From positions 99,434 through 163,433 of IMG/VR virus record IMGVR_UViG_3300012007_000007: 64,000 nt of DNA. One strand, 5' to 3'. Position numbers and translations under genes: made by a program. Source of the stretch: a virus (lineage: Duplodnaviria > Heunggongvirae > Uroviricota > Caudoviricetes). The notes below the pieces were generated by a model that was not told where the DNA came from, searched no databases, and saw only the letters and a list, made by a program, of their open reading frames with translations. Below are positions 7,015 to 64,000 of this stretch, piece after piece; the first letter of the stretch is position 1; the number at the start of each line of letters is the position of its first letter.

Positions 7015-7023
7015 AAAAGTAAG

Positions 7024-12149: not shown

Positions 12150-13115
12150 ATGCCCAACGCAAACCTCAACCGGGCGAAATCAGCCAAGAACGACGAATTC
12201 TACACGCTTCCAGCCGATGTTTCCCTGGAAGTATCGGCATACCTCCGCAGGAACCCCGACCTTTTCCGGGGAAAGTCCGTGCTCTGCCCCTGCGACGACC
12301 CGGACGACAGCGCGTTCGCGAGCCACTTCGCGGAACACCTGGGCGAATACGGGATAACCCGCCTGGTCTGCTCCTGCTACAACCGGGAATCCCACGGGAA
12401 GGTACGGGTCATAGAGAACGGTACTACCGTAGACTCCGAGCTCGAGGGCGACGGGGACTTCCGGGGGGAGGAGGTGGGACGGCTCATCGACGGCGCGGAC
12501 TTCGTGGTGACCAACCCCCCGTTCAGCCTGTTCAGGGACATCGTGGCCGTCCTGACGGCGAAAAATAAATTCTTTTCCCTGATAGGGAACCTCAACGCGA
12601 TAGGGTACAGCGAGATTTTCCCCCTTATAATGGAGAACCGCCTCTGGACGGGGGCCACCCACTTCAACACCGGGATGTACTTCCGCGTTCCCGGGGACTA
12701 CGAGTACGCACCCACCTACAAGTTCGACCGGGAGCGGGACGGCGTGAAGGTGATGCGCGTCCCGGCGACCTGCTGGTTCACCAACATAGACTTCGACTCA
12801 AGGCACGACACCCTGGAGCTCTCCTCCCGGGAAGCCCTGGAGAAGAAGGGGGTGTCGTTCCCGGTATATGACGACTACGACGCGATAGAGGTGTCGAAGG
12901 CGGTCAACATCCCGGGCGACTTCCCGGGGATAATGGGAGTTCCCATATCCTGGCTGGGCAAGTACAACCCGGAACAGTTCGAGATAGTGGGCATAGCCAA
13001 CCACGGCAAGGACAGCGAGTACGACCTGTTCGCCCCGAGCGTCCACGGGGAGACCGTGTACAAGCGGCTGCTCATCAGGCACCGGCATGCGCCCCAGGAT
13101 TCCCCCGTCCTCTAA
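12150..13115 (+). CDS. DNA N6-adenine methyltransferase paralog (321 aa)
   Basis: FVVTNPPFSLFRDI motif; N-terminus near-identical to CDS 8896. Confidence 0.75.
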   Translation: MPNANLNRAKSAKNDEFYTLPADVSLEVSAYLRRNPDLFRGKSVLCPCDDPDDSAFASHFAEHLGEYGITRLVCSCYNRESHGKVRVIENGTTVDSELEGDGDFRGEEVGRLIDGADFVVTNPPFSLFRDIVAVLTAKNKFFSLIGNLNAIGYSEIFPLIMENRLWTGATHFNTGMYFRVPGDYEYAPTYKFDRERDGVKVMRVPATCWFTNIDFDSRHDTLELSSREALEKKGVSFPVYDDYDAIEVSKAVNIPGDFPGIMGVPISWLGKYNPEQFEIVGIANHGKDSEYDLFAPSVHGETVYKRLLIRHRHAPQDSPVL

Positions 13116-23852: not shown

Positions 23853-24488
23853 ATGATGGCGAGGGAATTTGCTTTGGGCGTACTGGTCCTGGCGGGGAGC
23901 GCCGTGTTCGGGGTGGAGCCGGGGCTTCCGGCGGGTTTCGACCTGAGCTGGAGGCCTATGGGAGCCAACACCGGGAAGCTGGTGGAGGACGTGGAGGCGG
24001 TATACGAGGACGGTGATGGCAAGGTGCGCTGCCAGTACATCAGGGGGGTGGACCTCCCGGCGGTCCGGGAGTACGGGGAGTGGGTGTGCCCGGCGGTGAC
24101 GCTGTGGCACATCCGGGAGGTGGACATAGAGCGTTTCGGGGGGAAGTGCGGCGGTCTGCTGTGCATGTACGACTACACGATGCCCGGGGACCTCCCGACC
24201 GCGACCACGGTGAAGCGGGTGGCGTGGTGCCCGGACGTGGTTGTGACCCGTCGGGAGGGGGGCTACCTGCGTATCCGTGGCGGGCTCCGATTCGGACGGG
24301 GTGACAGGCCCGAGCCGTACTACAACAGCGGGGTGATACCTATGAGTTTCCCCCTGGACCCGGAGCTTGCGGAGTGCGGCGGGGAGAACTACCGGGAGCA
24401 GCGGAGGTTCTGGCTGGAGGAGTTCAGCGCGCCGGGGTACGGCGTGAGGGAGGAGGCCGGGGAGACGGACAGCTGGGACGGGACCTAA
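23853..24488 (+). CDS. membrane-anchored protein (211 aa)
   Basis: ATGATG after GGGAGGATAGCCGC; N-terminal hydrophobic helix FALGVLVLAGSAVFG. Confidence 0.5.
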   Translation: MMAREFALGVLVLAGSAVFGVEPGLPAGFDLSWRPMGANTGKLVEDVEAVYEDGDGKVRCQYIRGVDLPAVREYGEWVCPAVTLWHIREVDIERFGGKCGGLLCMYDYTMPGDLPTATTVKRVAWCPDVVVTRREGGYLRIRGGLRFGRGDRPEPYYNSGVIPMSFPLDPELAECGGENYREQRRFWLEEFSAPGYGVREEAGETDSWDGT

Positions 24489-24530
24489 CGGGTCCGGGAT
24501 GGGATGCCCGGGAGGTCCGGGGAATTCCCA
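24483..24530 (+). promoter_or_regulatory. class-I element (last copy)
   Basis: CCTAACGGGtccGGGATGGGATGCCCGGGAGGTCCGGGGAATTCCCA. Confidence 0.55.
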
Positions 24531-24568
24531 GGGGTATGGGCGTGAACAGTAACAAGATGGAGGACATC

Positions 24569-25720
24569 ATGGTCAAGGAGATGGAAAGGCGTTACTTCCG
24601 GGGACTCGGCGGAGACAGCGTGTCCGTCCCCTCCGGGAGCGACCGCGGGGAGCGGATAGAGGGCTTCTTCGCCGAGAACGGTGTCTCCCTCCGCGTGGAC
24701 GGGGTGGAGCGCGGCCCGGTGGTGACGAAGTACGTGGTGTCGCTGGGAAGCGACCGTGACCACGTGGCTAGGGTGGAGAACCTCCGCAGGGACCTGGGCA
24801 TCCGTCTCGGGGTCGGCGCGGGGAGGGTCTACATCGGCGAGACCCCGTGGAAGGGCGGCGTATCGCTGGCGATAGAGGTCCCGAACGCGGAGAGGGCGGG
24901 CGTGCCGGCGGGAGCCGTGATTCCGTCCGTGAGCGGGGACATTGCCAGGGACGGGCTGCGCGTGTGCCTGGGGGTGGACACCTCGGGCCGTCCGTATTCG
25001 GTGGACCTGTCCGTCGCCCCGCACGTGCTGGTCGCGGGCCAGAGCGGGAGCGGGAAGAGCGTGTTCCTGGACAGCCTGATATGCGGCCTCCTGGACAACT
25101 ACGGGCTTGGGGACTGCGAGGTGTCGGTGGTTGACCCGAAGGGCACGGAATTTATTTCGTTTTCCGGGCATCCCGGGGTTGTCCGGTACGGTCTGGGGAT
25201 TCCCGAGGAGGGCGCGGTGGTGAGGTCCGAGGAGGCCGCGGAGCACCTGGAGGCCCTGGTCCGCGTCATGCGTTCCCGCATGGCGGCGTTCGCGGGCGTG
25301 GGTGCGGGGAACATCCGGGAGTACCGGGAGGTGACGGGGTCGGCGATGCCGTACCACGTTGCGGTGGTGGACGAGTTCTACGACCTGCTGGTTAACTACC
25401 CGGAGGCGGAGGGCCCGATGGGCATCCTGGCGGCGAAGGCGAGGAGCGCGGGCATCCACCTGGTGCTCGCCACGCAGCGTCCGTCGGCGGACGTGGTGCG
25501 CGGTGCGCTGAAGGCGAACCTGTCCACTAGGATAGCGCTGAAGGTCGCGTCGAGGACGGACTCCCAGGTCATCCTGGACCGCGGCGGGGCGGAGACCCTG
25601 TGCGGCCGAGGGGACATGCTCTACATGGGCCCGGACGGGGATGCCCCGGTGCGCCTGCACGGGTGCTACGTGAGCAACGCGGACATCAGGGGCTTCGTCG
25701 CGAGCTGCGCGGGCCGGTAA
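24569..25720 (+). CDS. FtsK/SpoIIIE-family P-loop DNA translocase-like ATPase (383 aa)
   Basis: Walker A VAGQSGSGKSVF, Walker B VAVVDEFYDL, LVLATQRPSADVV motif. Confidence 0.7.
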   Translation: MVKEMERRYFRGLGGDSVSVPSGSDRGERIEGFFAENGVSLRVDGVERGPVVTKYVVSLGSDRDHVARVENLRRDLGIRLGVGAGRVYIGETPWKGGVSLAIEVPNAERAGVPAGAVIPSVSGDIARDGLRVCLGVDTSGRPYSVDLSVAPHVLVAGQSGSGKSVFLDSLICGLLDNYGLGDCEVSVVDPKGTEFISFSGHPGVVRYGLGIPEEGAVVRSEEAAEHLEALVRVMRSRMAAFAGVGAGNIREYREVTGSAMPYHVAVVDEFYDLLVNYPEAEGPMGILAAKARSAGIHLVLATQRPSADVVRGALKANLSTRIALKVASRTDSQVILDRGGAETLCGRGDMLYMGPDGDAPVRLHGCYVSNADIRGFVASCAGR

Positions 25721-25781: not shown

Positions 25782-26396
25782 ATGGACAAGGAAACCTTAG
25801 CACAAATCAGTACAATCGTCGGCTCCAAGCGCATCGCGGAGGGGGCAGTGGCCTACCTCAGCATGTGCCGGGAGATACCGGACGAGGGGAAGGTGTGCAG
25901 GGCCCTCCACGTGAGCCCCCTCACAGCGAGGAAGATATGCGCCGTCGCCGCTCTCTCGGGCAAGTTCCTGCTCGACACGGTCCCGGTGCACGTGAACAAC
26001 CCGGCCCTGGTGGCGGGCTACCTGAGCGACCTGAAGTTCGCCCCCACGGAGCACGTGGTCGTCCTCAGCGTCGCTTCCGACAACACGCTCATCAAGCGCC
26101 ACGAGTGCTCGTCCGGCGCGAGCAACCGGGCCACGGTCGACCCCTGCACGGTGTTCAGCGGCCCGGTCCAGGACAAGGCGCGCTCCATCATCGTGGCCCA
26201 CAACCACCCGAGCGGAAGCGTCGAGTTCAGCAACTCCGACTACGACTTCACGGAACAGCTCGTGAAGGCCGGCCGCCTGCTGAACATCAGGGTCCTCGAC
26301 AGCATCGTAATCAGCCACCGCGGAATCAAGTCGATGCGTGCCGAACGCCCCGAGATGTTCGCCGAGCCGAAGCCCTCCCAGGAACCCAAGGCGTAG
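25782..26396 (+). CDS. RadC-like JAB/MPN-domain protein (204 aa)
   Basis: IIVAHNHPSGSVEFSNSDYDFTEQL (JAMM motif HxH...S...D); AAAAGGAGAA RBS. Confidence 0.7.
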   Translation: MDKETLAQISTIVGSKRIAEGAVAYLSMCREIPDEGKVCRALHVSPLTARKICAVAALSGKFLLDTVPVHVNNPALVAGYLSDLKFAPTEHVVVLSVASDNTLIKRHECSSGASNRATVDPCTVFSGPVQDKARSIIVAHNHPSGSVEFSNSDYDFTEQLVKAGRLLNIRVLDSIVISHRGIKSMRAERPEMFAEPKPSQEPKA

Positions 26397-26440
26397 TCCT
26401 TGGAATTCCCGGGAAACCGGGGCTGCCCATCTCGAATCCT

Positions 26441-26469
26441 GTTGACGGAGTTTTCAATTTTTATATTTT
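26441..26469 (+). promoter_or_regulatory. possible sigma70-like promoter upstream of the sigma-factor gene (TTGACG-16/17-TATTTT)
   Basis: good -35, weak -10 inside an AT-rich gap. Confidence 0.3.
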
Positions 26470-26557
26470 ATTTTTTGATTTTTCAAACAAACGGACAACT
26501 GACAACAATACAATAAGCCCTCCCGGGTACGGGAGGCGAGAACGGAGGAAATGGACC

Positions 26558-27334
26558 ATGGAGTTCGCCAAGGAGATATTCAAGAACGAGGTTCGGGCGG
26601 CATACCTAAGGGCATGCGGGATAATCACGAGCCCGGAAGTCGAGAACGCGCTCATAGCGAGGGCGAAGAGGGGGGACAGGGCGGCCAGGAACCTGCTTTT
26701 CGAGAAGCAGCTCCCTGCGCTGCTGGACATGGCGAACCACAGCAAGTACGGGGTGTACGGCGGGAACGCGTCGGAGCTGGTGTCCTCCGTGATGGGGATA
26801 ATGGACCGTGCTATAGAGCTGTTCGACCCGACGAGGGGTCTGCGGTTCTGGACGTTCCTGAGGAACCACGCGTTCAACGCGATGAACAAGGAGTCCTACG
26901 AGGACAGCCTCATCCACGTCCCGGAGAACTACGTGAAGGCCAACCGCCGCGGCGAGGTCGCCTCGGTGGAGTCCGGGGATACCGCCGTGGGCAAGAAGGA
27001 CGGGGTGACCGTGACCAGGTTCGACCTGATGGCCGGGGACGACGGCAACGAGACGGTCTTCGGCCGCCTGGTCGAGCGGGAGCAGGAGGGCATCGCCGGT
27101 AGGCTCCTGACCGCACTCGACAGGGACGAGCAGTACGTGGTGGAGAAGTGCTACCTGGAGGACGAGCCGGACGAAGCCGGGAATCCCGGGAGCAGGCCGT
27201 GGAGCGCCGCGTCGGTGGCGCGGTTCACCGGGAGTTCGAAGGAATGCATCAACCGTATCCGGAAGGCCGCCCTGGCGAAGATGCGGAAGGCACTGGACGC
27301 GGACAGGGACTGGTGCATCGACCAGAGCGTATAG
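26558..27334 (+). CDS. sigma-70 family RNA polymerase sigma factor (258 aa; regions 2 and 4 only)
   Basis: region 2 (RGDRAARNLLFEKQLPALLDMANHSKYGVY) and region 4 HTH (SVARFTGSSKECINRIRKAALAKMRK); ACGGAGGAAATGGACC RBS. Confidence 0.65.
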   Translation: MEFAKEIFKNEVRAAYLRACGIITSPEVENALIARAKRGDRAARNLLFEKQLPALLDMANHSKYGVYGGNASELVSSVMGIMDRAIELFDPTRGLRFWTFLRNHAFNAMNKESYEDSLIHVPENYVKANRRGEVASVESGDTAVGKKDGVTVTRFDLMAGDDGNETVFGRLVEREQEGIAGRLLTALDRDEQYVVEKCYLEDEPDEAGNPGSRPWSAASVARFTGSSKECINRIRKAALAKMRKALDADRDWCIDQSV

Positions 27335-47622: not shown

Positions 47623-47907
47623 CTATTTCTTGTATATCCGTCGCATCACCAGCAGCCCCGTCGTCAGTATCGTCGCTACCGTGTAGTTGAAGTACAGCGG
47701 CCACTGCCATTCCCCGGTCACGCAGTTGGTGTACAGGACGAAAGCGCAGCTTCCGAGGTTACCTACGTAGGCCAGCGCGAAGAACCCGTACGATAGCCCG
47801 GTATCCTTCTTCTTCCACGCCTTGCGGACCTGAGGGGCCAGGTTGAATGCGAATGCCACCGCACCCGCACCTCCCAGAAGCCAGAACAGAATCCCTACCG
47901 CGTCCAT
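47623..47907 (-). CDS. PQ-loop / SemiSWEET-like small membrane protein (94 aa)
   Basis: 3 TM helices; PQVRKAWKKKDTGLS motif. Confidence 0.4.
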   Translation of the reverse strand: MDAVGILFWLLGGAGAVAFAFNLAPQVRKAWKKKDTGLSYGFFALAYVGNLGSCAFVLYTNCVTGEWQWPLYFNYTVATILTTGLLVMRRIYKK

Positions 47908-49154
47908 CAGCCCGCCTTGATTTCCCCCACGAGTTTATCGAACCACTCCCGCGTCATCTGCCGCCTGTCCTTGCGATGGCGGTACACGGCCAGCCGGAGC
48001 TTTCTGAGCGTATGTCCAAACTCCTTGCCCTGCTTCACGCCGGCATCGAGCAACGCCCTCGTCATGTCCTTCATTGTGGGCCACTCGGTCGCGTGCTCCC
48101 GCAGCTTTATCTCGTCCGTCCGAGAAATTACCAGGTAGCCCTGTCTCGAGAACACGTAGGCCCTGAACAGTTCCCATCGGTCGTCGGTAACCAGGTCGAC
48201 AAGGTCTACAAGGTCGAGCGTACCGGCGAGGTACTTCTTGAATCTTTCGGTAATATACTCGACGTTCCTCGCGTCCTCCCTGGTGCACTTCAGGGCCTGC
48301 ATCGAGTACTTGTCCGGGAGTATCAGCGGGAACAGGTATTCGGGCTTCCACTGCACGTCACTACCCAATGTCGCGCACGCCGTAGCCAATCTTGCAATGC
48401 ACTGTCTGGCAAAGTCCCAGTCGATATTCAGGCCAGTTCCCTTCCCGATGTCCCATGACGCCATCCAGCCGAGCATCGCGGCGACCTGCTGCACTCCGTA
48501 CTCGGCACACTTGGCAAGCTCGTCGTGAATCCTTTCCTTCGATATGTTGGCCAGCCTCGGCGCAAGCACCCTCGCGGCATTCAGCGTGGCAACATCTATC
48601 TTCATGCCGAAACGAGCGGCGAACCGGCACATCCTCACTATCCTTAGCGCGTCCTCGGTGAACCGCTCGGTAGCATCGCCGACGGTCCGCAGGTGGTTCT
48701 TCGTAATTGATTCAACGCCGCCGTGGTAGTCGACCACACGGTAATCGCCGTCCAGTCCCATTGCATTGGCGGTGAAGTCCCTTCTCGCCGAATCCTCCTC
48801 AAAGCTCCCGGCCCACTCTACGCTATCCGGGTGCCGTCCGTCGGTATAGTCCCCGTCCTTCCTGAACTGGGTCACCTCGAACATCGTGTCCTTCCACTCG
48901 ACCAGCACGGTACCGTGCGCCTCGCCGTTGTTGCTCTCGCACCTGAACGCCTTCTTCAGCTCCTCGATTGGCATGTTGGTCGCTATGTCCACGTCGTGTA
49001 TGCCGGGATGCTTCTCCAGCCCCAGCTCCCAGCGGACAAGGTCCCTCACGCAGCCCCCGGCAAGGAGTGCGTCATATCCGTGTTTACCAATCTCCCTGAC
49101 TAAACCGAGCCCCTTCTCGACGAGGGGGATGGTCCTTGCGTTCAATATAATCAT
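47907..49154 (-). CDS. tRNA nucleotidyltransferase (CCA-adding enzyme / poly(A) polymerase head + HD domain) (415 aa)
   Basis: GGCVRDLV ... HDVDIAT nucleotidyltransferase motif; C-terminal HD-like LRIVRMCRFAARFG. Confidence 0.7.
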   Translation of the reverse strand: MIILNARTIPLVEKGLGLVREIGKHGYDALLAGGCVRDLVRWELGLEKHPGIHDVDIATNMPIEELKKAFRCESNNGEAHGTVLVEWKDTMFEVTQFRKDGDYTDGRHPDSVEWAGSFEEDSARRDFTANAMGLDGDYRVVDYHGGVESITKNHLRTVGDATERFTEDALRIVRMCRFAARFGMKIDVATLNAARVLAPRLANISKERIHDELAKCAEYGVQQVAAMLGWMASWDIGKGTGLNIDWDFARQCIARLATACATLGSDVQWKPEYLFPLILPDKYSMQALKCTREDARNVEYITERFKKYLAGTLDLVDLVDLVTDDRWELFRAYVFSRQGYLVISRTDEIKLREHATEWPTMKDMTRALLDAGVKQGKEFGHTLRKLRLAVYRHRKDRRQMTREWFDKLVGEIKAG

Positions 49155-54852: not shown

Positions 54853-54946
54853 TTGTTACTCCGATGTATTGAAGTTGATAGATTTCATTTTTCAGCAGCA
54901 CGTTGGGTTAACATACCCAAACAATATCTATTCCGGATGCGTGTAG

Positions 54947-55029
54947 CGGAAGGCGAGGGACTCGAACCCCCAAGCGTTTTACCGCGGCGGATTTCAAGTC
55001 CGCTGACTTACCAGTTAGCCTAGCCTTCC
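54947..55029 (-). tRNA. tRNA-Ser (anticodon UGA), long variable arm
   Basis: hand-folded cloverleaf; acceptor GGAAGGC/GCCTTCC; anticodon loop CTTGAAA; T-loop GGTTCGAGTCC. Confidence 0.65.
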
Positions 55030-55036
55030 TGTTTCC

Positions 55037-55225
55037 CTAGTAGTGGGCGTGCGAAGAGAGAAGTTCAGCCTTCTCCCTCTCCATGCGCTCCCTCTGCCGG
55101 GCAAGCTTCTTGATGTCTATTCCGCAGGACTTGGCCATGCTCCTGGCCTTCTTCTGCTGCTTGGCCCAGCGGGCCTGCTTCTGCTCCTCGGTTTCCTCCG
55201 GGAGCTCTTCCCTGTGCTTCTTCAT
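55037..55225 (-). CDS. small Lys/Glu-rich protein (62 aa)
   Basis: ORF track. Confidence 0.4.
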   Translation of the reverse strand: MKKHREELPEETEEQKQARWAKQQKKARSMAKSCGIDIKKLARQRERMEREKAELLSSHAHY

Positions 55226-55233
55226 ATGTCCCC

Positions 55234-55701
55234 CTAGTCGTTCACCCCGACGACCACAATCTCGTCTTCGGTAAAATACTCGTTAAGTTTGTCCCTGTTG
55301 GCCTGCATAGTGTTCCACATGCGCTCGACCACGTCAATAGGAACCTTGCGCTCCCTGCCTTCCATTCTCCGCATGGCGACCTCGGGCGGAATGTCGAACC
55401 AGTAGGCCCTGGACATTGAGCCGGCCGGGCAAAGGCCCAGGTAGGTCCTCCAGTCCCTCACGTGGATATTGGTGGCGTCGCACACCACGTCGCCGCGCAG
55501 CATGCCCTCCGATACCCTAGAACGGAATATGGCGAATACCTTGGAATCCAGCTCCGGGTAGAGGTATTCCTCCGTACCGGTCAGTTCCTTCCGGATTCCA
55601 TCGGACGACACTACGGTAGCCCCGGTAGATTCCGCGAGCTTCCTCCCGTACGTAGACTTGCCGCACCCGGGAATGCCTATGAGAAGATGCAGAGTATTCA
55701 T
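55234..55701 (-). CDS. polynucleotide 5'-kinase (T4 Pnk kinase-domain-like P-loop kinase) (155 aa)
   Basis: GIPGCGKST Walker A; RKVPIDVVERMWNTM closely resembles T4 Pnk KAVPIDVLRSMYKSM. Confidence 0.65.
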   Translation of the reverse strand: MNTLHLLIGIPGCGKSTYGRKLAESTGATVVSSDGIRKELTGTEEYLYPELDSKVFAIFRSRVSEGMLRGDVVCDATNIHVRDWRTYLGLCPAGSMSRAYWFDIPPEVAMRRMEGRERKVPIDVVERMWNTMQANRDKLNEYFTEDEIVVVGVND

Positions 55702-55719
55702 CTGATTGTTCCTTTTTAG

Positions 55720-55792
55720 TAGTCCTACCCGGATTCGAACCGGAGTTACCGGAATGAGAATCCGGCGTCCTGGGCCTCTAGACGATAGGACC
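55720..55792 (-). tRNA. tRNA-Glu (anticodon CUC)
   Basis: hand-folded; strong similarity to bacterial tRNA-Glu backbone; loop TTCTCAT. Confidence 0.6.
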
Positions 55793-55807
55793 GTGTGTTA
55801 AATTTAG

Positions 55808-55881
55808 CTCCGGTGGACAGACTCGAACTGCCGAATCTCCTGATTACAAATCAGGCGCTCTACCAACTGAGCTACACCGGA
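55808..55881 (-). tRNA. tRNA-Thr (anticodon UGU)
   Basis: hand-folded; loop TTTGTAA; T-loop TTCGAGT. Confidence 0.6.
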
Positions 55882-55887
55882 ATGGAA

Positions 55888-55961
55888 TCGGGGTAGCCGG
55901 ATTCGAACCGACGACATCCTGCTCCCAAAGCAGACGCTCTACCAGGCTGAGCTACACCCCG
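55888..55961 (-). tRNA. tRNA-Pro (anticodon UGG)
   Basis: hand-folded; loop TTTGGGA. Confidence 0.6.
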
Positions 55962-55967
55962 GGAACC

Positions 55968-56228
55968 CTAGTCTTCTTCGACTGGTTCCGTCAGCTTGGT
56001 AGCGATTACCTTCGCGTAGTCGGCCACCGTGCGGATACGTTCGAGCTCGGAATCGAGAATCTCAATCTCGAACTCGTCTTCCATCGCCATCACGATTTCC
56101 ACGATGTCGAGAGAGTCCGCGCCGAGGTCGGCAGCGATTTCGGAATCGTCGTCGATGTCGGAAACGTCAAGTTCCAGCTTGGCGGAAATTACGTTCTTCA
56201 CGCGTCCGAGAAGTTCATTGCTTGTCAT
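55968..56228 (-). CDS. acyl carrier protein (86 aa)
   Basis: GADSLDIVEIVMAMEDEF phosphopantetheine-attachment motif; AGGAGA RBS. Confidence 0.65.
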   Translation of the reverse strand: MTSNELLGRVKNVISAKLELDVSDIDDDSEIAADLGADSLDIVEIVMAMEDEFEIEILDSELERIRTVADYAKVIATKLTEPVEED

Positions 56229-56244
56229 ATACTCTCCTTGTAAA

Positions 56245-56541
56245 TCACTTGACTTCTTCGACTTTCTGCGGTCCGGCCAGGCGGTGCATGTCCGCATACA
56301 GTCTTTCCCGGTATAGTCCGAGGTCCTTCAATGTCTTTTCCAGTTCGTCGAACCTGCATTCGACGACACGGTCTCCGGATTCGATGCGGGCCTTCTCCTT
56401 ATCCATGTCGTACCGTATCCATGTTACGGCCAGGTCCTTCGGGTTGACGTACTTGGTCGTCGTAACGTCGTACGAGTGCATGTTTTGGAGGTAACCTTCG
56501 ATGAACCGGAATTTCCAAAGAGCAAAGTTTGTCAAGTCCAT
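56245..56541 (-). CDS. hypothetical protein (98 aa)
   Basis: ORF track. Confidence 0.5.
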   Translation of the reverse strand: MDLTNFALWKFRFIEGYLQNMHSYDVTTTKYVNPKDLAVTWIRYDMDKEKARIESGDRVVECRFDELEKTLKDLGLYRERLYADMHRLAGPQKVEEVK

Positions 56542-56562
56542 TGTTCATTATCCCCAAATTGC

Positions 56563-56651
56563 CAGTTTATGTAGAAGAGGGAGCAGGATTCGAACCTGCG
56601 AGGGCCCGTGAGGGCCCCACCGGCTTAGCAAGCCGGCGCCTTTAGCCTCTC
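56563..56651 (-). tRNA. tRNA-Ser (anticodon GCU), long variable arm
   Basis: hand-folded; loop TTGCTAA; 89 nt. Confidence 0.6.
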
Positions 56652-56670
56652 GGCCACCCCTCCGATGAAA

Positions 56671-57450
56671 TTAGTTCAGCGACAGGTCGGGAACTACCCT
56701 TTCCACGGAGCGGCTGTCGTTGAACTCGCTGCCACGATAGCGGTGAGTGTCGTACTTCGGGTCCTGCCCTATGATGCCGTAAGTCATGGAATCGGCCATG
56801 CCGGATGTCTTGCACACGCTGAACAGCGCGTCGCTCATGAACGGGTACCGCTTCAGCTCGTTGAGGAGACCGTCGAGTATGAAGTCGGCGAACCTGGTGT
56901 AAGCGCCGCTGTAGCACAGCAGACCCTTGTTCAGCCCGACCAGGAACAGCTTCATCTCGGAATGGTGGGCGAGGTACTCGTAAACTCCCTCCGTAATCTG
57001 CGGATAGGTCGGGGAATACATGTCGTCGAGCACCACTACACCGTCCGGCTGCAGTACCTTCGACGCGATGTCGAGGTCGCACTTCACCCCTTCCAGGGAA
57101 TGGGCCCCGTCGATGTGGATGAACTGCATGCACTTTCCGTATTCGCGGGTGAACGGGGTGTAGCATGAAAGGTTGAGGTATCCCTTCACGTGCTCCCCGT
57201 CCAGCGTGGTATGCGAAAGCACGTTCTCCCTGGTGGTCTGGTAGTGTCCGGCGTCGCATTCGACGTAGTGGAACGTGTCGGAAGTGCTGCTCGCTATGAT
57301 GACGGCCGTCTTCCCGTCCCACGTCCCTATCTCCATCGTGTTCGCCGGCTCGATGAAGCGTAGAAAACAGTCCATCAGGACCATGGCCTCGTAGTTGTTG
57401 AAGCCCTCTATGTCCGCGACAGTGTACATGTTGAATATATCGTTCTTCAT
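56671..57450 (-). CDS. class I SAM-dependent methyltransferase (TylF/MycF-like fold) (259 aa)
   Basis: EIGTWDGKTAVIIA (motif I-like), IHIDGAHSLEG, DGVVVLDDM. Confidence 0.5.
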   Translation of the reverse strand: MKNDIFNMYTVADIEGFNNYEAMVLMDCFLRFIEPANTMEIGTWDGKTAVIIASSTSDTFHYVECDAGHYQTTRENVLSHTTLDGEHVKGYLNLSCYTPFTREYGKCMQFIHIDGAHSLEGVKCDLDIASKVLQPDGVVVLDDMYSPTYPQITEGVYEYLAHHSEMKLFLVGLNKGLLCYSGAYTRFADFILDGLLNELKRYPFMSDALFSVCKTSGMADSMTYGIIGQDPKYDTHRYRGSEFNDSRSVERVVPDLSLN

Positions 57451-57484
57451 CGGGAATCTCCGGGAGATTGGTTGTTTTTGCTAG

Positions 57485-57557
57485 TATCCCCACCAAGACT
57501 CGAACTTGAATCGGCGGTTTAGGAAACCGTGGCTCTATCCTGTTGAGCTATGGGGAC
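57485..57557 (-). tRNA. tRNA-Arg (anticodon CCU)
   Basis: hand-folded; loop TTCCTAA. Confidence 0.55.
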
Positions 57558-57582
57558 TCATACTCGTACTTACGGAAGTGGA

Positions 57583-57666
57583 GGGACTCGAACCCCCAAG
57601 CCGGTAAAGGCTCGCGGTTTTCGAAACCGCTCCGCCACCACTTGCGGGACACTTCCTGTATAGGGT
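57583..57666 (-). tRNA. tRNA-Ser (anticodon CGA), long variable arm
   Basis: hand-folded; perfect acceptor GGAAGTG/CACTTCC; loop TTCGAAA. Confidence 0.6.
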
Positions 57667-57673
57667 GGAAGAC

Positions 57674-57747
57674 AGGGCTTGAACCTGCAACAGCCGGCTC
57701 CACAAGCCGGGGCTCTACCAGTTGAGCTACTTCCACCGTAAATGGCC
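57674..57747 (-). tRNA. tRNA-His (anticodon GUG) with genomically encoded G-1
   Basis: hand-folded; loop TTGTGGA; extra 5' G pairing with C73. Confidence 0.6.
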
Positions 57748-57864
57748 ATGCGGCCCGGGAGCGCCGGGATATCCCGCGGCGTTTTCCCGGTTGCCCCGGG
57801 AGCATACCGCCGGCATGCTGAGCATCCCGGGTATTGGCCGGGACTCACTTACATCACCGCATAG

Positions 57865-57939
57865 TGCCCCTGGATGGGCTCGAACCACCGACCACTCCCA
57901 CCAATGGCGGGAGATGCTCTACCGCTGAGCTACAAGGAC
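57865..57939 (-). tRNA. tRNA-like gene with non-canonical anticodon arm (8-bp stem / 3-nt loop, or 9-nt loop)
   Basis: acceptor, D-arm and T-arm (GGTGG-TTCGAGC-CCATC) fold; anticodon region CTCCCGCCATTGGTGGGAG does not give a 7-nt loop. Confidence 0.4.
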
Positions 57940-58184
57940 ATGGACCGGGGTACTAGCTAGCTCTCCCCCGGCGATTGAAGCAGCCGGCTGCCATGCAGGC
58001 TGACGGGCCCACATGGCCCGCCTTCACGATTTCCCTCCAATCAATTGGAAACCGGGAACGGTAGGCGGGCGCAGTCCGGTATCCCGGATGGCTGGCCCCT
58101 GGGCTGTTCCATGCCCGCCATGACTTTGTGCCTCATGGTGGCGACCATCGCATTTCCCGCGGTCGACGGGGCATGCGGTAGTAG

Positions 58185-58260
58185 TGGACGGTCTGGGGCT
58201 CGAACCCAGGGCCTAGTGGTTATGAGTCACCTGCTCGCATACCAACCGAGCTCACCGTCC
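58185..58260 (-). tRNA. tRNA-Met (anticodon CAU; elongator, or Ile2 lysidine type)
   Basis: hand-folded; perfect acceptor GGACGGT/ACCGTCC; loop CTCATAA. Confidence 0.55.
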
Positions 58261-58266
58261 GTAAAC

Positions 58267-59025
58267 TTATGCTTCAATTAACACATCATCTGATTCAATA
58301 TATCGATAGAACGTGCAACCTAGCAGCTCTTTGATGATACGTGTTCGTTCGATATCCTTGTCCTGACATACGCCATTAGTGTAATGGTGCCTGTGTTCAT
58401 CGTATTCAACGACTATATTACGTTCTTTATCATAAGCATCCAATGAATAACGGCCAACTCGAATCTCACCACCATTCATTGCATGCTGTAAATTCCAGCC
58501 ACGCTCAGCATTGAGCCTATCGAAATATTCACACGCTTTGATGCTGTATCGCGGACCAGCATTGGTTGCGTTTATATATTGCCGCGTCGATTCGCTAATT
58601 TTCTTCTTGGTTTCATCAGAATGGGTTCTTCCAGTGAATGTTCCCTTCAACTCTCCGCTAGCATATCGGTTTTCTAATGTAGTCACATACTGTTTGACCC
58701 TGGCATCAGTGAATTGTGTCAATCCCTTGTTCCATGCACTTCCAATCAGCTTTCGCTTTCCATCAACTACAACGAATCTAATCGCCTTATCGGGGTGAAC
58801 ACTCTTCTTATGTGCATCGAGAAGCCGTCTGGTTTCCATTACGCAATCACAGAATGGACACTTCCAGTCATTAGACCTGCGCCGACGAGTTGCTGGAGGA
58901 TGTCCTGTCAGTTTACCGTTCTTGTTTGATTGCTTGCCAATATTGCGATATTGGCAAGCTCTCGAGCAGAACCTCCCAGACCCGTACGAACCATCATGCT
59001 CAGCACCACATTCTTCGCATATCAT
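58267..59025 (-). CDS. putative freestanding homing endonuclease (N-terminal zinc fingers + NUMOD3-like motif) (252 aa)
   Basis: CEECG...CSRAC and CPFCDC...H..H fingers; FTGRTHSDETKKKISESTRQY NUMOD3-like; embedded in the tRNA cluster like T4 segB. Confidence 0.45.
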   Translation of the reverse strand: MICEECGAEHDGSYGSGRFCSRACQYRNIGKQSNKNGKLTGHPPATRRRRSNDWKCPFCDCVMETRRLLDAHKKSVHPDKAIRFVVVDGKRKLIGSAWNKGLTQFTDARVKQYVTTLENRYASGELKGTFTGRTHSDETKKKISESTRQYINATNAGPRYSIKACEYFDRLNAERGWNLQHAMNGGEIRVGRYSLDAYDKERNIVVEYDEHRHHYTNGVCQDKDIERTRIIKELLGCTFYRYIESDDVLIEA

Positions 59026-59042
59026 ATCTTTTATCCTTTTAG

Positions 59043-59119
59043 TGCCACGGGGTGGATTCGAACCACCATCTCACCTGGTCGCGAACCAAGGATGCGCTCT
59101 GCCGTTAAACTACCGCGAC
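59043..59119 (-). tRNA. tRNA-like gene with insertion between D- and anticodon stems
   Basis: T-arm GGTGG-TTCGAAT-CCACC and acceptor fold (2 G-U pairs); the standard anticodon stem does not pair. Confidence 0.35.
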
Positions 59120-59120
59120 A

Positions 59121-59774
59121 TGGTGGGAACAGCGGTATCCTAGCTTCTAGAAAGCGTCACCGCCCGGTTCCCTCTCGGTGTCCTTGCAGGGACTGTACTC
59201 ATTCCGCCGATGCGGAAACCATCCGGCTATCTGCCAACCGGCTAGGCCACTGTAACCAGTGTGGCCAACGGGCCCTTAATGCTCCACGTTACCAGGACGT
59301 GGCCGCACTCTGTCTTGTTTTACGTCGTTTCGACGGGCGCACCCGACGGCCGGACTTGCGAGAGCATACCTCGCTCGTCCATATTTGGCTTCCCCGCAAT
59401 TTACACCTAGGCTAATCACGGTTACCCAAAATCATAATCTCGCTGGCGCATTACCGGGCTTCCCCGAACGGTACCCCGGCCATTATTCCGCCACTTATGC
59501 TACGGCACAGCCCCATAGGATATACCTGCGGGCATCTTCCATCATCTCCGTCGAGACTTTTCAAACACACTGGGCCTATTAGCGGGCCCTTACCGCTTTA
59601 CGCTCGCGTGGCCGGTACGCGGCTGCACGCATGCAACCTTTCCCTGAACGGGATTGGCATTATGGCACTTGGCCAAGCTCATCAAATGCATGACCCCAGA
59701 TTCCTGTCGGGCCAAGAAACTTACCGCACGAATATCCAGGAATCTCAGTCGGGCGGCAGCAATCCAATGTCCTA
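59121..59774 (-). ncRNA. candidate structured ncRNA (GC-rich, ORF-free, ~650 nt) with RNase P RNA P3/P4-like motifs
   Basis: minus-strand hairpin GCGAG-guaugcu-CUCGC followed by AAGUCCGGCC; later ACAGAGUGCGGCC, CCUGGUAACG; near the 3' end GGGAACCGGGCGG complementary to GUCCGG; ends ...CCCACCA. Confidence 0.3.
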
Positions 59775-59847
59775 CTCCGGCTGCCGGACTCGAACCAGCG
59801 ACCCCGTCATTACGAATGACGCGCTCTACCAGCTGAGCTAAGCCGGA
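59775..59847 (-). tRNA. tRNA-Thr (anticodon CGU)
   Basis: hand-folded; perfect acceptor TCCGGCT/AGCCGGA; loop TTCGTAA. Confidence 0.6.
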
Positions 59848-60135
59848 AAAATGGTGGAACGCCCCGGTCTCGATTGTTCACAGGAAGTACCAGAGCCTTG
59901 ATAATGCCGAGCGGCCTTGCGTCCACCAAATGGTTTCCCGGCGGGGCGTAATATCTTCAATGTAAAAATAGGAACGCCGTTTGCCGGGAATAAAGGGGGC
60001 ACCTCCCGGGGAGTAATAATTTAACCCGTAAGAAGGAACTCCGTATGGGAGGTGCTAATGTCTTGGCGCGGGCCCAACCGGAGGAGAAAGGGCCCGCGCC
60101 GTCGCCGCGGCATGGAGGGACCGCGGACTTGTTCG

Positions 60136-60208
60136 TAGCGGGAGGCGGATTCGAACCGCCGACCTCGAGGTTATGGGCCTCGCGAGCTACCAACTGCTCC
60201 ATCCCGCG
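60136..60208 (-). tRNA. initiator tRNA-fMet (anticodon CAU)
   Basis: C1 x U72 mismatch, A11:U24, GGAGCAGTTGGTAGCTCG closely matches bacterial tRNA-fMet; loop CCCATAA. Confidence 0.6.
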
Positions 60209-60439
60209 TCGTAAAAAGGTTGGTACGGGACTGGCAAGGAGTTTTCGTCGAATCAACCAAATAAGGAGTATCATGGCAATGAATGAACCATGATGTATGG
60301 CACCTCGCCCGTCCCGTACCGAAAAGGTATTGCCTGGATATCGTATCCAGGAACGCACGGCTTAACCTGAGCCGTGTGAGAAAAAACGCATCCGGACTGT
60401 CAATCTGCTTGGGAAACTCTGGGATTTCCCGGTATGCCA

Positions 60440-60455
60440 TAAATATAGCAAAAAA
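60440..60455 (-). promoter_or_regulatory. class-III motif, likely promoter of the tRNA operon
   Basis: TTTTTTGCTATATTTA ~230 nt upstream of tRNA-fMet on the minus strand. Confidence 0.4.
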
Positions 60456-60604
60456 TGACGAGCGTGACAATAAATTGAGTAATATTTCAGAAAAATATGG
60501 CTCAAACACTTGTCAATACGCTCATTACGCAGAGTGAGCTTGGTGAATCAGCACTGTTTAATGAATGCGGAATCACCTTGCTCGTGCTGTTGACGATTAC
60601 TTAA

Positions 60605-61565
60605 ATGTCACATGTCCACTGAATGGGGCACGGTTCATCCCGGTAATGTTCACTTTTAACTACCCTGAAGTGTTGCCATTCCTCTGAATGGGAACGGGTC
60701 CACTAACATATTGCCCGTATCGGGGGCCGGACTGGTGTTGCTACCTCACAAAATGGAGGTAGGACCACCTATTTAATGTTGCTGGCTCAATCTTGTGCTG
60801 GTGTAGTCACCCCTCAAAATGGGGGTGGGTCCACCCTGGGCTTTCTCGCCGCTGGCGCCCTTGTCGGTGTAGCCACCCCTCAAAATGGGGGTGGGTCCAC
60901 CAGAGAGAGTAATTGCCGTATGAATTTGTACGGTGTAGTCACCCCTCAAAATGGGGGTGGGTCCACCAACATCGGTACGCTGAACGTAACGAGCGAGGGG
61001 TGTAGTCACCCCTCAAAATGGGGGTGGGTCCACCATCCTACAATAACGGGGCAATTACCGTCAAGGTGTAGTCACCCCTCAAAATGGGGGTGGGTCCACC
61101 GGTTATCCAGCCATTTATCCATGCCCTTCTGGTGTAGTCACCCCTCAAAATGGGGGTGGGTCCACCCGCAGGTGAAATAGTATTCTTTTCCTGGTTGGTG
61201 TAGTCACCCCTCAAAATGGGGGTGGGTCCACCCGACACAGCAGCCGTTGTAGGCGCCGTCATGGTGTAGTCACCCCTCAAAATGGGGGTGGGTCCACCAA
61301 GCCGGGGGTCATTAAAAACCTTACTAGAGGTGTAGTCACCCCTCAAAATGGGGGTGGGTCCACCTATGACTTCCTTGGTATAGTCTTCGATGCCGGTGTA
61401 GTCACCCCTCAAAATGGGGGTGGGTCCACCACTTACACGAGAAGATGCGTTCAAGCTCCTGGTGTAGTCACCCCTCAAAATGGGGGTGGGTCCACCCGGG
61501 GGCGAGTACAATTACTATGGCCTCTAGGTGTAGTCACCCCTCAAAATGGGGGTGGGTCCACCTTG
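60605..61565 (-). CRISPR. CRISPR array: 12 intact 36-bp repeats (GGTGTAGTCACCCCTCAAAATGGGGGTGGGTCCACC as read on the plus strand) + ~3 decayed repeats at the low-coordinate end; 11 spacers of 30-31 bp
   Basis: exact 66-bp periodicity from 60803 to 61565; repeat 2 has a T-to-C variant; decayed units at ~60611, 60677, 60743 keep the 66-bp phase; internal hairpin CACCCC-TCAAAAT-GGGGGTG in the repeat. Confidence 0.9.
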
Positions 61566-61575
61566 GTTTTCATAA

Positions 61576-64000
61576 TTACTTGCACTTCAATGCGTTAACG
61601 AACTCTGTGTCCTTAAATTTTACCCTATTCCTGATACAAAAGGCTGCATTGACATCGGCATTTTGAAGCTTACCATGCAAGGAACATTCCGGATTTCCAC
61701 ATACAAACTTTCGTCCGTCACGGAAATTCACCTTCTTAGTTAGGCACTGTTCCTGGGTCAGTTTTACATCCTTCTTTGCACATTTACCATATCCACATGC
61801 ATGACATGTTTGAGATGTCTTTTTAGCGGATACTTCCTTGTACAGGGTTCCTCGACGAGTTACGATACGTTCGACATCATGCTTTAATAGGGCAAGGTGC
61901 ATAGCGTTCTTGGTATAATGGTCGGACCATTCGCTGTCGCGTCGACGCAAACCTTCCTTAGTCGGTTCACAGTACAATGTAACGATTGAGCCGTTAATAG
62001 AGATTTCCTTTGGAGCATGCCAATCAGTCGTATCCTTGCAATTCGACATGATTTCCTGCTTCGTTACCGTTCGACCAAAGTCAATGACAGCCGTATTGCT
62101 GTTCTTGGAAGCAGTTAACTTGTAACCTTCATTAGGACCCATGTGCCATGTCTTAGAAACCGTTGTATACAGCGTTGTGAACTTCCCGGTCTTCTCCAAT
62201 TCATTGAGGTTAAGATTTTCCATGGAAACAATATCGGCCTTGGAGAATGTCTTGGTGTTGAGCAACTCGCATGACAGGATGAAGGTGCTTTCCGAGCGAA
62301 TCTTTTTGGTCAGTTTAGCGTATTCATCATTCAGTTCAGCCGCAATCTTGGACCGCTTTGCGAAGATTTCCGTCATGGTATCGTGCTTGCGGTCCCACCT
62401 GGCCTGCTCATAGAAATAATGTCGACGATTCGCAATGAGCTGACGGTGGAACTTGCGCCACAGCTTGGTGTGACCGATAATGGCAATCTGCCGGTCCGTA
62501 TAGAAAGGAGTGCCGTCGGCATTGGTCCTGTGGATAAGCCAGGCGAACATGGGGGCACATGGGTCGCTTACCGGAATCCAGTCGTGCTTCGCATCAGTCG
62601 GGGAGCCATCACGCATAGCAATAGACAGCATGGCGATAAAGTTGTAATCACCACTCTCGTATTCGTCTACGAGACGCTTCAGGTCATCCCGGGTCGACAC
62701 AGTTGATGTCGTGGTGAACAGTTTCGTCTCCGAATGGTCCTGATAGTAGGCGTGCACTGCTTCGTGCCAGTCTACCATGTCTGGCCCGATGTCCTTAGCC
62801 TTGATTGTAGTAATGAGGCCAGCGACTGCGATGCCGGCGTCAATGCCTACCGTCTTGGCCAGGTCAATATCCTGGATATGTTCCTTGTCGAGCGAAGGTA
62901 CCTTGCGAGGTACATCGTATGGTATGTTCAGTGTCATCGGAGGAATCCCCGGATGGTGCATATCAGTGCACACCATTTTAGACACATTCACGTCACCATT
63001 GAACACGATAGTGCCTTTCGGACACACTTTCGATAGGGCGAACAGATTTTCGGGGTAATAGTTGGTACCCTTATCCGAATGAGCCCTGATTAGAATGTCA
63101 ACAGTTCCTCCCGGTAAACCGCGGGCAGTCACTTTCCAGTCGAAGTAGGTACTGTCAAGCGTGGAGCCACGGTCGACCACAAGTTCAGGGAGGGTGATGG
63201 GAATGACTTTGTTCGGGTTTGGTACGTTCTCGATTACTGCCTTCTTGAATTCGGAATAGGCATCGAGATAGATTTCGAGCGCCTTGTCAGCTAGCTTTTC
63301 GAATTCGTCAAACGTAATATCGAGTGCTTCACCTTCAACCTTAGTTTTTAGTGTTTTCTTGTTGTCCTTCCCGAACGCCTTCTTCAATTCCGGCATCTCG
63401 CCATTGATTGCTTTCAGTGTCTGCGGACCGCATACAGTCAATACTTTAACTATCTTTCCGTAGTTAAAAACATCCAGGCAACTTTTCTTGGCTACAGACC
63501 GTACAGCAAACGCCCACTTCGTATCGGCATGACCGTTGACTGCCTTGGACAGCATGGAAACTCGCTGAGTATAGCCCTTCATCATGCCGTCGACCTTGGC
63601 ACAGACACATTCATTCCAGTATGTGGCAGGTGTTTCTACCGTGATTCCGGTCTCTTCGGAAATAGCATTGTCAATCATGGAGATGAATTCGGCGCGGTCA
63701 CCGAGTATAGGGGAATTCGGGTTGAACAATTCCCTGGTCGGGCGTGCATTGGGACCGTTTCCGATAGAAGCATTCACCGTATATTCAGTGGTACCGCGAA
63801 TAATAGTATATTTTTTCTCGGCATTCAGGTATTCTTCGGGAATGCCCTCACAGTAGATATCGAACACGGTCATATTCACTGTGCCGTCGTTTGTAATGAC
63901 GGTGAGCTGGTCGAAGAGTCTTTCCTTGATGCGTTCGAATGCAGCCTTGATTGCCTTGTTTGCACCGATAACACAGGATGCCAGACGCTTGGCTCCCCGT
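61576..64000 (-). CDS. cas12: type V CRISPR effector, Cas12/TnpB-like RuvC nuclease (at least 807 aa; 5' end beyond window)
   Basis: RuvC-I TVGIDAGIAVAG, RuvC-II IVSMENLNLNEL, zinc finger CHACGYGKC...CGNPEC, RuvC-III NADVNAAFCIRNR (D-x-NAA-x-N-I class); reading frame stays open to the window edge (no stop upstream of the GTG at 63879); the array starts 10 bp after the stop. Confidence 0.8.
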   Translation of the reverse strand, partial: RGAKRLASCVIGANKAIKAAFERIKERLFDQLTVITNDGTVNMTVFDIYCEGIPEEYLNAEKKYTIIRGTTEYTVNASIGNGPNARPTRELFNPNSPILGDRAEFISMIDNAISEETGITVETPATYWNECVCAKVDGMMKGYTQRVSMLSKAVNGHADTKWAFAVRSVAKKSCLDVFNYGKIVKVLTVCGPQTLKAINGEMPELKKAFGKDNKKTLKTKVEGEALDITFDEFEKLADKALEIYLDAYSEFKKAVIENVPNPNKVIPITLPELVVDRGSTLDSTYFDWKVTARGLPGGTVDILIRAHSDKGTNYYPENLFALSKVCPKGTIVFNGDVNVSKMVCTDMHHPGIPPMTLNIPYDVPRKVPSLDKEHIQDIDLAKTVGIDAGIAVAGLITTIKAKDIGPDMVDWHEAVHAYYQDHSETKLFTTTSTVSTRDDLKRLVDEYESGDYNFIAMLSIAMRDGSPTDAKHDWIPVSDPCAPMFAWLIHRTNADGTPFYTDRQIAIIGHTKLWRKFHRQLIANRRHYFYEQARWDRKHDTMTEIFAKRSKIAAELNDEYAKLTKKIRSESTFILSCELLNTKTFSKADIVSMENLNLNELEKTGKFTTLYTTVSKTWHMGPNEGYKLTASKNSNTAVIDFGRTVTKQEIMSNCKDTTDWHAPKEISINGSIVTLYCEPTKEGLRRRDSEWSDHYTKNAMHLALLKHDVERIVTRRGTLYKEVSAKKTSQTCHACGYGKCAKKDVKLTQEQCLTKKVNFRDGRKFVCGNPECSLHGKLQNADVNAAFCIRNRVKFKDTEFVNALKCK

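Follow-up and report, generated by a model that had tools for sequence, protein, structure and literature searches.

The 64,000-nucleotide (nt) stretch analysed here (positions 99,434 to 163,433 of the IMG/VR virus record IMGVR_UViG_3300012007_000007, called the window below, always at its full length) ends in a gene for a Cas12-type effector, which is followed on the minus strand by a clustered regularly interspaced short palindromic repeat (CRISPR) array. A first-pass annotation, made from the letters alone, had described a minimal type V CRISPR-Cas locus at this position, and we followed it up computationally. The locus consists of the following features, in the order in which they are read (the alignments A1 and A2 are described below; crRNA, CRISPR RNA):

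61576-64000, minus strand: gene of the Cas12-type effector, of whose 835 codons the C-terminal 807 are present, with the TAA stop codon at 61578-61576; its promoter and its first 28 codons fall outside the window, past the end
62839-62841, minus strand: codon gac of the RuvC-I catalytic aspartate D415 (motif GIDAG), invariant in A1 and A2
62218-62220, minus strand: codon gaa of the RuvC-II catalytic glutamate E622 (motif SMENLN), invariant in A1 and A2
61684-61806, minus strand: zinc-finger TNB domain between RuvC-II and RuvC-III, with C760, C763, C795 and C800 (CxxC...CxxxxC), invariant in A1
61654-61656, minus strand: RuvC-III catalytic aspartate D810 (motif QNADVNAA), constant throughout A1 and conserved to at least 90% in A2
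61563-61575, minus strand: 13-nt junction TTATGAAAACCAA (effector sense), from the stop codon to the first repeat
60800-61562, minus strand: CRISPR array of 12 36-nt repeats and 11 spacers, crRNA sense GGUGGACCCACCCCCAUUUUGAGGGGUGACUACACC, leader-proximal end at 61562
60669-60799, minus strand: trailer end of the array, made up of two decayed repeats and an additional spacer (60770-60799)

The minus-strand frame of the effector is open from 63999 to its stop codon and encodes 807 amino acids (aa) within the window, with the N-terminus outside it, as had been noted before. A word-indexed search of 5.8 billion proteins recovered the full-length effector P0001 (835 aa, 100% identical) on contigs of up to 222 kb, and furthermore 18 relatives at 45-72% identity. 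Conservation was read from two alignments, the family alignment A1 with 17 sequences and A2 with 14 sequences reaching down to 18% identity. In these, the three catalytic residues D415, E622 and D810 are conserved, as are the four cysteines in A1, which bears out the arrangement RuvC-I, RuvC-II, zinc finger and RuvC-III that had been proposed, and the worry voiced at that stage that the catalytic residues might fail on alignment is settled by the presence of the conserved D-E-D triad. Moreover, D810 lines up with the RuvC-III aspartate of Cas12p and TnpB. The sole Pfam match is PF07282 (Cas12f1-like TNB) over residues 714-789 with an expectation value (E) of 1.7e-8, above the gathering score, whereas the NCBIfam model guided_TnpB stays below its threshold (E 2.4e-6, 27 bits versus a cutoff of 100), PADLOC gives marginal Cas12f and Cas12u matches only, and PHROGs gives no match. 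No HNH domain is found in the effector, as Pfam, NCBIfam and PADLOC show only TNB, TnpB or Cas12 models. Save for the generic TNB domain, the family is therefore absent from these four collections. An exhaustive search with a hidden Markov model (HMM) of 1.84 billion representatives at 50% identity returned only 22 proteins at E <=0.001, so that the family, with sizes of 797-929 aa, is small and isolated. A name for the effector or its relatives was found in none of the sources, and an earlier mention is possible in patents or in the catalogue of CRISPR systems encoded by viruses that appeared in Cell in 2022. The split RuvC site with its D-E-D triad, the TNB insertion, the conserved position next to an array and a Cas12-like bilobed fold are the marks of type V, and the effector is certainly a Cas12-type protein.

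The array itself is built of the 36-nt repeat GGTGTAGTCACCCCTCAAAATGGGGGTGGGTCCACC (plus strand), of which exact and fuzzy matching located 11 perfect copies and one copy with a single mismatch (at 60866) between 60800 and 61562, with a period of 66-67 nt and with spacers of 30-31 nt, every one of them unique. Tandem Repeats Finder and a repeat finder gave a 66-nt period across 60669-61562, which takes in the decayed repeats at 60734-60769 (8 mismatches) and 60669-60704 (11 mismatches); a third decayed copy at about 60604-60639 is very doubtful. The first-pass annotation had counted 15 units. The array is real and its 36-bp repeats, its spacers of about 30 bp and the 11 spacers between good repeats were read correctly, but the count was too high, since there are 12 good units and two to three degenerate ones. 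The locus of the window phage on two further contigs (L001/L002) has 0 mismatches to the window. An open reading frame (ORF) of 157 aa over the array (61038-61511) is an artefact of the repeats, which are thus not a protein-coding tandem repeat, a possibility that had been raised before, and looking for the repeat sequence in the literature gave no relevant paper.

The same layout is present in nine loci, the effectors of which are 31-100% identical. Besides the window, these are:

L003: effector 70% identical, 294-kb contig
L004/L005 and L012-L015: effector 70% identical, 206-kb contig
L016, L017 and L018: effectors 72, 60 and 69% identical, respectively
L011: effector 45-48% identical
L006: effector 31% identical, IMG/VR, 253-kb contig
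L010: L006-type clade, relatives on contigs of up to 474 kb

All nine have 36-nt repeats and spacers of about 30 nt, and the junction between stop codon and first repeat, previously put at 10 bp, is exactly 13 nt long in nine of nine (the window, L003, L004/L014, L006, L010, L011, L016, L017 and L018), with the consensus TTAYGAAAAGnnn. This fixed spacing could be a leader or integration signal, could serve processing of the first crRNA, or could provide translational coupling. Furthermore, the repeats degrade with distance from the effector in every locus, L003, L014 and L011 being among the examples.

The repeat is conserved as a folded RNA. Among 32 distinct repeats from eight loci, aligned without gaps, the structure ((((..((((((((........))))))))..)))) is paired in 90.4% of the cells, versus 33-51% in controls with the partners shifted by 1-3 columns; both sides have changed in nine of the 12 pairs, for instance in the terminal pair 4:33, which is G:C and becomes A:U in the L006 clade, and no shuffle matched the observed covariation score. 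The sequence is conserved at the termini (GGU...AYACC) and in the loop (CAUUUnGn). A 7-bp hairpin had been predicted for the repeat, and a hairpin is indeed supported by covariation, but its geometry is a different one, with a 6-bp inner stem and a 4-bp terminal stem (GGUG:CACC) in the window repeat; in the proposed fold the inner stem has 6-8 bp. The earlier idea of a crRNA handle that works without a trans-activating CRISPR RNA (tracrRNA) agrees with the anti-repeat search, since this computational comparison, over ±10 kb around the effector, turned up no further occurrence of any 10-mer of the repeat or its complement, and there is thus no tracrRNA candidate. Array transcription in the direction of the effector is supported by the polarity of repeat decay, by an excess of G:U pairs (32, versus 17 A:C pairs, in the effector sense), by the position of the protospacer-adjacent motif (PAM, see below), and by the lack of room for a promoter at the junction together with the placement of the motif TGCTATATT. 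As no promoter fits into the 13-nt junction, transcription probably runs on from the effector gene into the array. The motif TGCTATATT, which resembles an extended -10 element, occurs nine times in the window versus 0.12 times expected, eight of the nine copies standing on the minus strand before genes, and it is probably a promoter motif of the window phage. In L001, L003, L016 and L018 it also stands before the effector gene, 50-60 nt upstream of the ATG. Its positions in the window are:

31515, 36655, 38606, 40577, 44720, 51354, 52076, 53063 and 60442: sites of TGCTATATT
60442-60450, minus strand: the last of these sites, a boundary marker outside the CRISPR system, which opens the next transcription unit (structured RNA and tRNA-Met) just after the array trailer

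For the relation of the effector to the named Cas12 families, it was compared with all PDB chains. The single protein has no match at E <=10 (phmmer), profile A1 gives marginal matches to Cas12p and TnpB, and profile A2 reaches Cas12p, Cas12f, Cas14, Cas12m and TnpB at E 1e-8 to 1e-5, with all matches limited to the last approximately 100 profile positions, which comprise the TNB domain and RuvC-III. Since there is no sequence link beyond TNB and RuvC-III, the effector cannot be placed in a named subtype by sequence, in agreement with the first reading. Neither 8DC2 (Cas-lambda1) nor 9IZM (Cas-lambda2) is matched at E <=10 by the single protein, by A1 or by A2, and three remote proteins of the family (P0022, P0030 and P0035), queried singly with a limit of E 1, do not match Cas-lambda either. 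In an AlphaFold2 model built from A1 (predicted local distance difference test score, pLDDT, 74.7; predicted template modelling score, pTM, 0.48), however, the best Foldseek match is Cas-lambda2 (9izm_A; E 5.9e-7, probability 1.00, 11% identity) with an alignment across the whole chain, followed by Cas12p (1.8e-3), Cas12h and Cas12i. Judged by this predicted model, Cas-lambda appears to be the best single structural neighbour of the effector.

Cas-lambda goes by the label Cas12l in PDB entry 8DC2 and by the name Cas12n in some reviews. The crRNA of Cas-lambda2 has a 36-nt repeat with a terminal stem that joins the repeat ends and a stem-loop whose U-rich loop is read base-specifically, and no pseudoknot, and the system has no tracrRNA and a TTR PAM (PMC12141684). 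The repeat fold found here is this Cas-lambda2 crRNA architecture, save for the junction geometry and the start of the terminal stem: the stems are separated by a symmetric internal loop instead of a two-adenine junction, and the terminal stem begins at repeat position -36 and not at -33. Both systems belong to huge phages of animal-associated microbiomes (guts and rumen), both have a lone compact Cas12 effector beside an array without a tracrRNA, in both the 36-nt repeat forms a terminal stem and a stem-loop with U-rich loop and no pseudoknot, and a T-rich 5' PAM may be shared too, with TTR as published and TTG at a single protospacer of related arrays here. Taken together, the top Foldseek match, the repeat, the lack of a tracrRNA candidate, the TTG flank that agrees with TTR and the shared ecology could mean that the effector simply belongs to the Cas-lambda family. 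We regard this as unlikely, and membership is not supported at the level of protein sequence. Published Cas-lambda homologues have 735-798 aa and match 8DC2 at E of about 1e-10 (PMC11576732), and Cas-lambda1 and Cas-lambda2 are 37% identical (PMC12141684), whereas the window family has 797-929 aa and shows no detectable similarity even by profiles, and none of the 22 proteins found with the HMM bridges to Cas-lambda. Moreover, the window effector is about 40-90 aa longer than Cas-lambda, of which the solved proteins have 741-747 aa, and in all loci of the window family the array follows directly, at a distance of 13 nt from the stop codon. The effector family is thus probably a new subtype, sister to Cas-lambda.

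The first-pass annotation had likened the configuration to both CasPhi and Cas-lambda; Cas-lambda is clearly the closer one, and the comparison with CasPhi did not hold. In CasPhi, the repeat hairpin is located at the 3' end of the repeat and is not known to pair the repeat termini. CasPhi (Cas12j; PDB 7LYS, 7ODF) is also a minimal type V system of huge phages without cas1, cas2, cas4 or tracrRNA and with a single RuvC site, but it matches profile A2 only at E 1.5 and in the TNB region, and it resembles the effector neither by sequence nor as closest fold. Cas12p ('Cas12 hacker', PDB 9JFS) is likewise of phage origin and is the best PDB sequence match, with E 2.6e-8 for A2, limited to TNB and RuvC-III. 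It has 500-700 aa, requires a tracrRNA of 118-185 nt as well as host thioredoxin, and uses a GTN PAM (bioRxiv 10.1101/2025.01.20.633832), and it was ruled out as the family of the effector by the 835 aa, the lack of an anti-repeat, a similarity of about 70-80 residues only, and its PAM. Cas-delta was ruled out as well, as it comes from environmental samples and has an RYR PAM. With TnpB and Cas12f the effector shares the common core of RuvC and zinc-finger TNB domain. However, TnpB (about 400 aa) sits at a transposon end with an omega-RNA, while the window effector is twice that size, has large WED and REC regions and lies beside a 12-repeat CRISPR array, so that an identity as TnpB of IS200-IS605 elements was excluded by size, by the adjoining array and by the 27 bits in guided_TnpB. 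A huge-phage type V system without adaptation genes and tracrRNA is a kind of system already known from CasPhi and Cas-lambda, whereas the effector family itself seems to be new.

What such a system targets can be seen in one case. An all-against-all comparison of 87 spacers revealed that L014 spacer 22 (4549-4578) and L006 spacer 6 (9009-9037) are versions of one sequence with the same start, in loci with effectors about 31% identical. The corresponding protospacer is present in IMG/VR contig UViG_3300011977_000033 (L020, 834-806, minus strand), with 24 of 25 aligned positions identical to L014 spacer 22 and 28 of 29 to L006 spacer 6. The protospacer is not part of any array, is located where a small ORF ends, and has the 5' flank TTG. 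L020 is a 37.5-kb viral contig of a tailed phage with genes for a large terminase subunit and a portal protein; that it might be a related megaphage was ruled out, as it shows no protein similarity and has a terminase and portal of its own. This protospacer is direct, though single, evidence for targeting between phages, for the crRNA orientation and for a Cas-lambda-like TTR PAM. The earlier idea that the spacers target competing mobile elements has thus one direct example from related arrays, while the collections searched gave no target for the window spacers. The shared spacer is either an independent acquisition from a common competitor or has been retained for a long time under selection, and the shared protospacer was found in none of 185,579 bacterial and archaeal species genomes.

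A second group of spacers in related arrays is derived from tRNA genes:

L003, 12808-12837, 12940-12969 and 13197-13226: tRNA-derived spacers
L006, 9398-9425: tRNA-derived spacer

L003 spacer 5 is identical in 27 of 28 positions to tRNA-Tyr genes of jumbo phages and in 20 of 25 to the tRNA-Tyr of the window phage itself, L003 spacers 7 and 11 correspond to the 3' end of a tRNA and the flank downstream of it, and L006 spacer 12 holds, as seen by eye, the tRNA-Tyr anticodon-loop motif GACTGTAA. These spacers are close to, yet mismatched with, the tRNA region of the phages that carry them, which suggests as targets either host tRNA genes or the tRNA islands that competing megaphages carry. For the PAM they were left unused, as they have only mismatched homologous sites, with the flanks TCA and TCG. 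Host or self-like targets of this kind would also suit a repurposed effector, namely a nuclease-competent RNA-guided DNA binder or nickase for transcriptional silencing or host takeover, like Cas12c, Cas12m and Cas12k. We consider this improbable, because the D-E-D triad is strictly conserved, as is the zinc finger, unlike in Cas12k, because no TnsB, TnsC or TniQ is encoded nearby, and because the sole clear protospacer is located in another phage near its terminase and portal genes; nuclease-based interference is the reading we follow. As a separate observation, L014 spacer 3 matches window positions 6986-7016 (minus strand) inside an ORF, with 22 of its 31 letters identical and a contiguous run of 18 among these, which may reflect megaphages targeting each other's homologous genes and could also be chance.

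How the arrays receive their spacers is a question of its own. No Cas1, Cas2 or Cas4 was detected in about 74 kb, that is the whole 64-kb window and 10 kb beyond the effector, which extends what had been stated for the immediate neighbourhood. Precomputed Pfam annotation was used for window positions 1-21 kb (L022), 38-59 kb (L021) and 52 kb to 10 kb past the window end (L001), and PADLOC and Pfam were run on 94 six-frame ORFs of at least 75 aa for 20.8-38.5 kb. Likewise, none of the three was detected in L003 or L004 over the 10 kb on either side of the effector gene. With no adaptation genes detected on the phage, new spacers, if any are still taken up, would have to come from elsewhere. A degenerate repeat pattern found no match in the 185,579 species mentioned above (one genome each), so that there is no reference host with a cognate array and adaptation module, and no prophage copy. 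The spacer sets are nevertheless wholly different between lineages with effectors 60-72% identical, and the arrays have therefore turned over. An apparent polarised spacer gain, with 10 extra effector-proximal spacers in L005 compared to L004, which have the same effector, was rejected because L004/L012 has a scaffold gap of 100 N there; the ungapped L014 array equals the L013 array. Runs of N in arrays of public assemblies (L004 12543-12642; L005/L013 approximately 3911-4010) can in general mimic spacer differences between samples. Adjacent duplicate spacers were observed in L006 (8549-8644, spacer 1 equal to spacer 2) and in L017 (4092-4187, spacer 4 equal to spacer 5), which points to recombination of repeat-spacer units rather than acquisition by Cas1-Cas2 as their origin; the duplicated spacers gave no or only self matches in IMG/VR.

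It might be argued from the missing adaptation genes, from arrays that are identical between samples, from window spacers to which no targets were found and from the degenerate distal repeats that the locus is a decaying fossil, with the array out of use and the gene kept for another role. This is very improbable, as 11 of the 12 intact repeats are perfect, the repeat structure has been kept by compensatory changes between lineages, the 13-nt junction and the catalytic residues are invariant, and the spacer sets have turned over between lineages as just described.

The genome that carries the locus is that of a huge gut or rumen bacteriophage (contigs >200 kb), the contigs of the window phage and its relatives ranging from 206 to 474 kb, and the genes that had been taken as signs of a phage genome were confirmed at their positions:

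54946-60208, minus strand: tRNA cluster of 13 genes
47907-49154: CCA-adding enzyme (tRNA nucleotidyltransferase)
25865-27334: sigma factor

The CRISPR locus lies within a 22.5-kb island that holds 31 tRNAs, each of them on the effector strand (window 54946-60208 and L001 4205-19138); 13 belong to the window, on the side of the array, and the other 18 lie past the window end, upstream of the effector. The homing endonuclease gene at L001 8460-9305 is located between two tRNA blocks. No virion structural gene was identified in the 64-kb window and the G+C content is 56%, so a bacterial chromosome or plasmid with an adaptation module elsewhere on the replicon has to be weighed too. Of all alternatives this is the one we believe least, in view of the 31-tRNA island, the homing endonucleases, the sigma factor, the CCA-adding enzyme and the mostly small unannotated genes, of the closest distant relative on a 253-kb IMG/VR viral contig, of the repeat pattern that is absent from the reference species genomes, and of the array region having no significant match among the plasmids of PLSDB. 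The huge-phage setting, with its tRNA island, large contigs and viral relative, stands as first proposed. Between the array trailer and tRNA-Met there is a non-coding stretch of about 230 nt (60209-60436, minus strand; -77.9 kcal/mol, z -4.4, no Rfam match), perhaps the leader of a tRNA operon or a conserved structured RNA. It has 94% nucleotide identity to L011 3250-3480, starting exactly at the promoter motif, whereas the effectors of the two loci are about 48% identical; the CRISPR cassette is thus far more divergent than its flank.

Taking these results together, the locus is very likely a phage-borne type V interference module. Beyond that, we think it reasonably probable that it works as a functional minimal interference module of a huge phage with the full mechanism of Cas-lambda. 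One promoter of the TGCTATATT type would give rise to a single transcript with the 835-aa effector and the array, and the repeat fold, with terminal stem, inner stem and U-rich loop, would be bound by the effector as a 5' handle, no tracrRNA being needed. The single RuvC site probably also trims the precursor crRNA, in analogy to CasPhi and Cas-lambda. The crRNA would then direct cleavage of double-stranded DNA beside a T-rich 5' PAM, TTG at one site, in other phages that compete for the same host, and new spacers, if they are still acquired, would be supplied by adaptation machinery of the host or of a co-infecting element. Several points weigh against this picture. The window array gave only chance-level matches (E >=0.9) to 50,697 phage and 72,556 plasmid records, and window spacers 1, 2, 3 and 7, searched with 22-nt seeds, had no match in IMG/VR. 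The PAM comes from one protospacer, and this belongs to related arrays and not to that of the window. The search for cas1, cas2 and cas4 covered about 74 kb, and the genome measures at least 222 kb. The arrays of the same phage from different samples are identical and so do not show ongoing spacer acquisition. Finally, the AlphaFold2 model is of moderate quality and its global TM-scores to Cas-lambda2 are low (0.21-0.23). Only tentatively do we therefore put forward the most comprehensive description, which has slightly less than even chances in our estimation: an undescribed type V subtype that is a structural sister of Cas-lambda with no recognisable sequence similarity left, confined to a lineage of animal-gut megaphages (200-470 kb), organised as a fused effector-array transcription unit with the invariant 13-nt junction in a tRNA island, used against competing phages including the tRNA genes of rival megaphages, and provided with spacers without adaptation genes of the phage or a host array of the same repeat.

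CasPhi and Cas-lambda, as compact, tracrRNA-free and self-processing Cas12 proteins of phages, have become genome editors. The effector family described here offers a new editor scaffold with a similar one-RNA design and an unrelated sequence, possibly with another PAM or other temperature or fidelity properties. Furthermore, it shows how far Cas12 proteins can diverge while the crRNA architecture persists. The locus also poses the questions of how arrays turn over with no cas1, cas2 or cas4 in 74 kb and no matching repeat in reference bacterial genomes, why the spacing of 13 nt is fixed, why the cassette is more divergent than its flanks, and whether megaphages aim CRISPR at each other's tRNA islands.

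Elsewhere in the window there are genes for HNH and homing endonucleases, a MoxR-type AAA protein, DUF2201, DUF932 and Band_7 proteins, and many small unannotated genes. A PADLOC match to SspH/mad8 (24374-25717, plus strand; E 4e-43) was rejected as a sign of Ssp defence, since it is limited to the ATPase domain of an FtsK/SpoIIIE-HerA-type ATPase. A gene for a GmrSD-like HNH-containing nuclease (9987-11237) is located between two genes of the EcoRI-methylase family (8896-9912 and 12150-13115), and this cluster looks like a restriction-modification module or a module directed against modified DNA.

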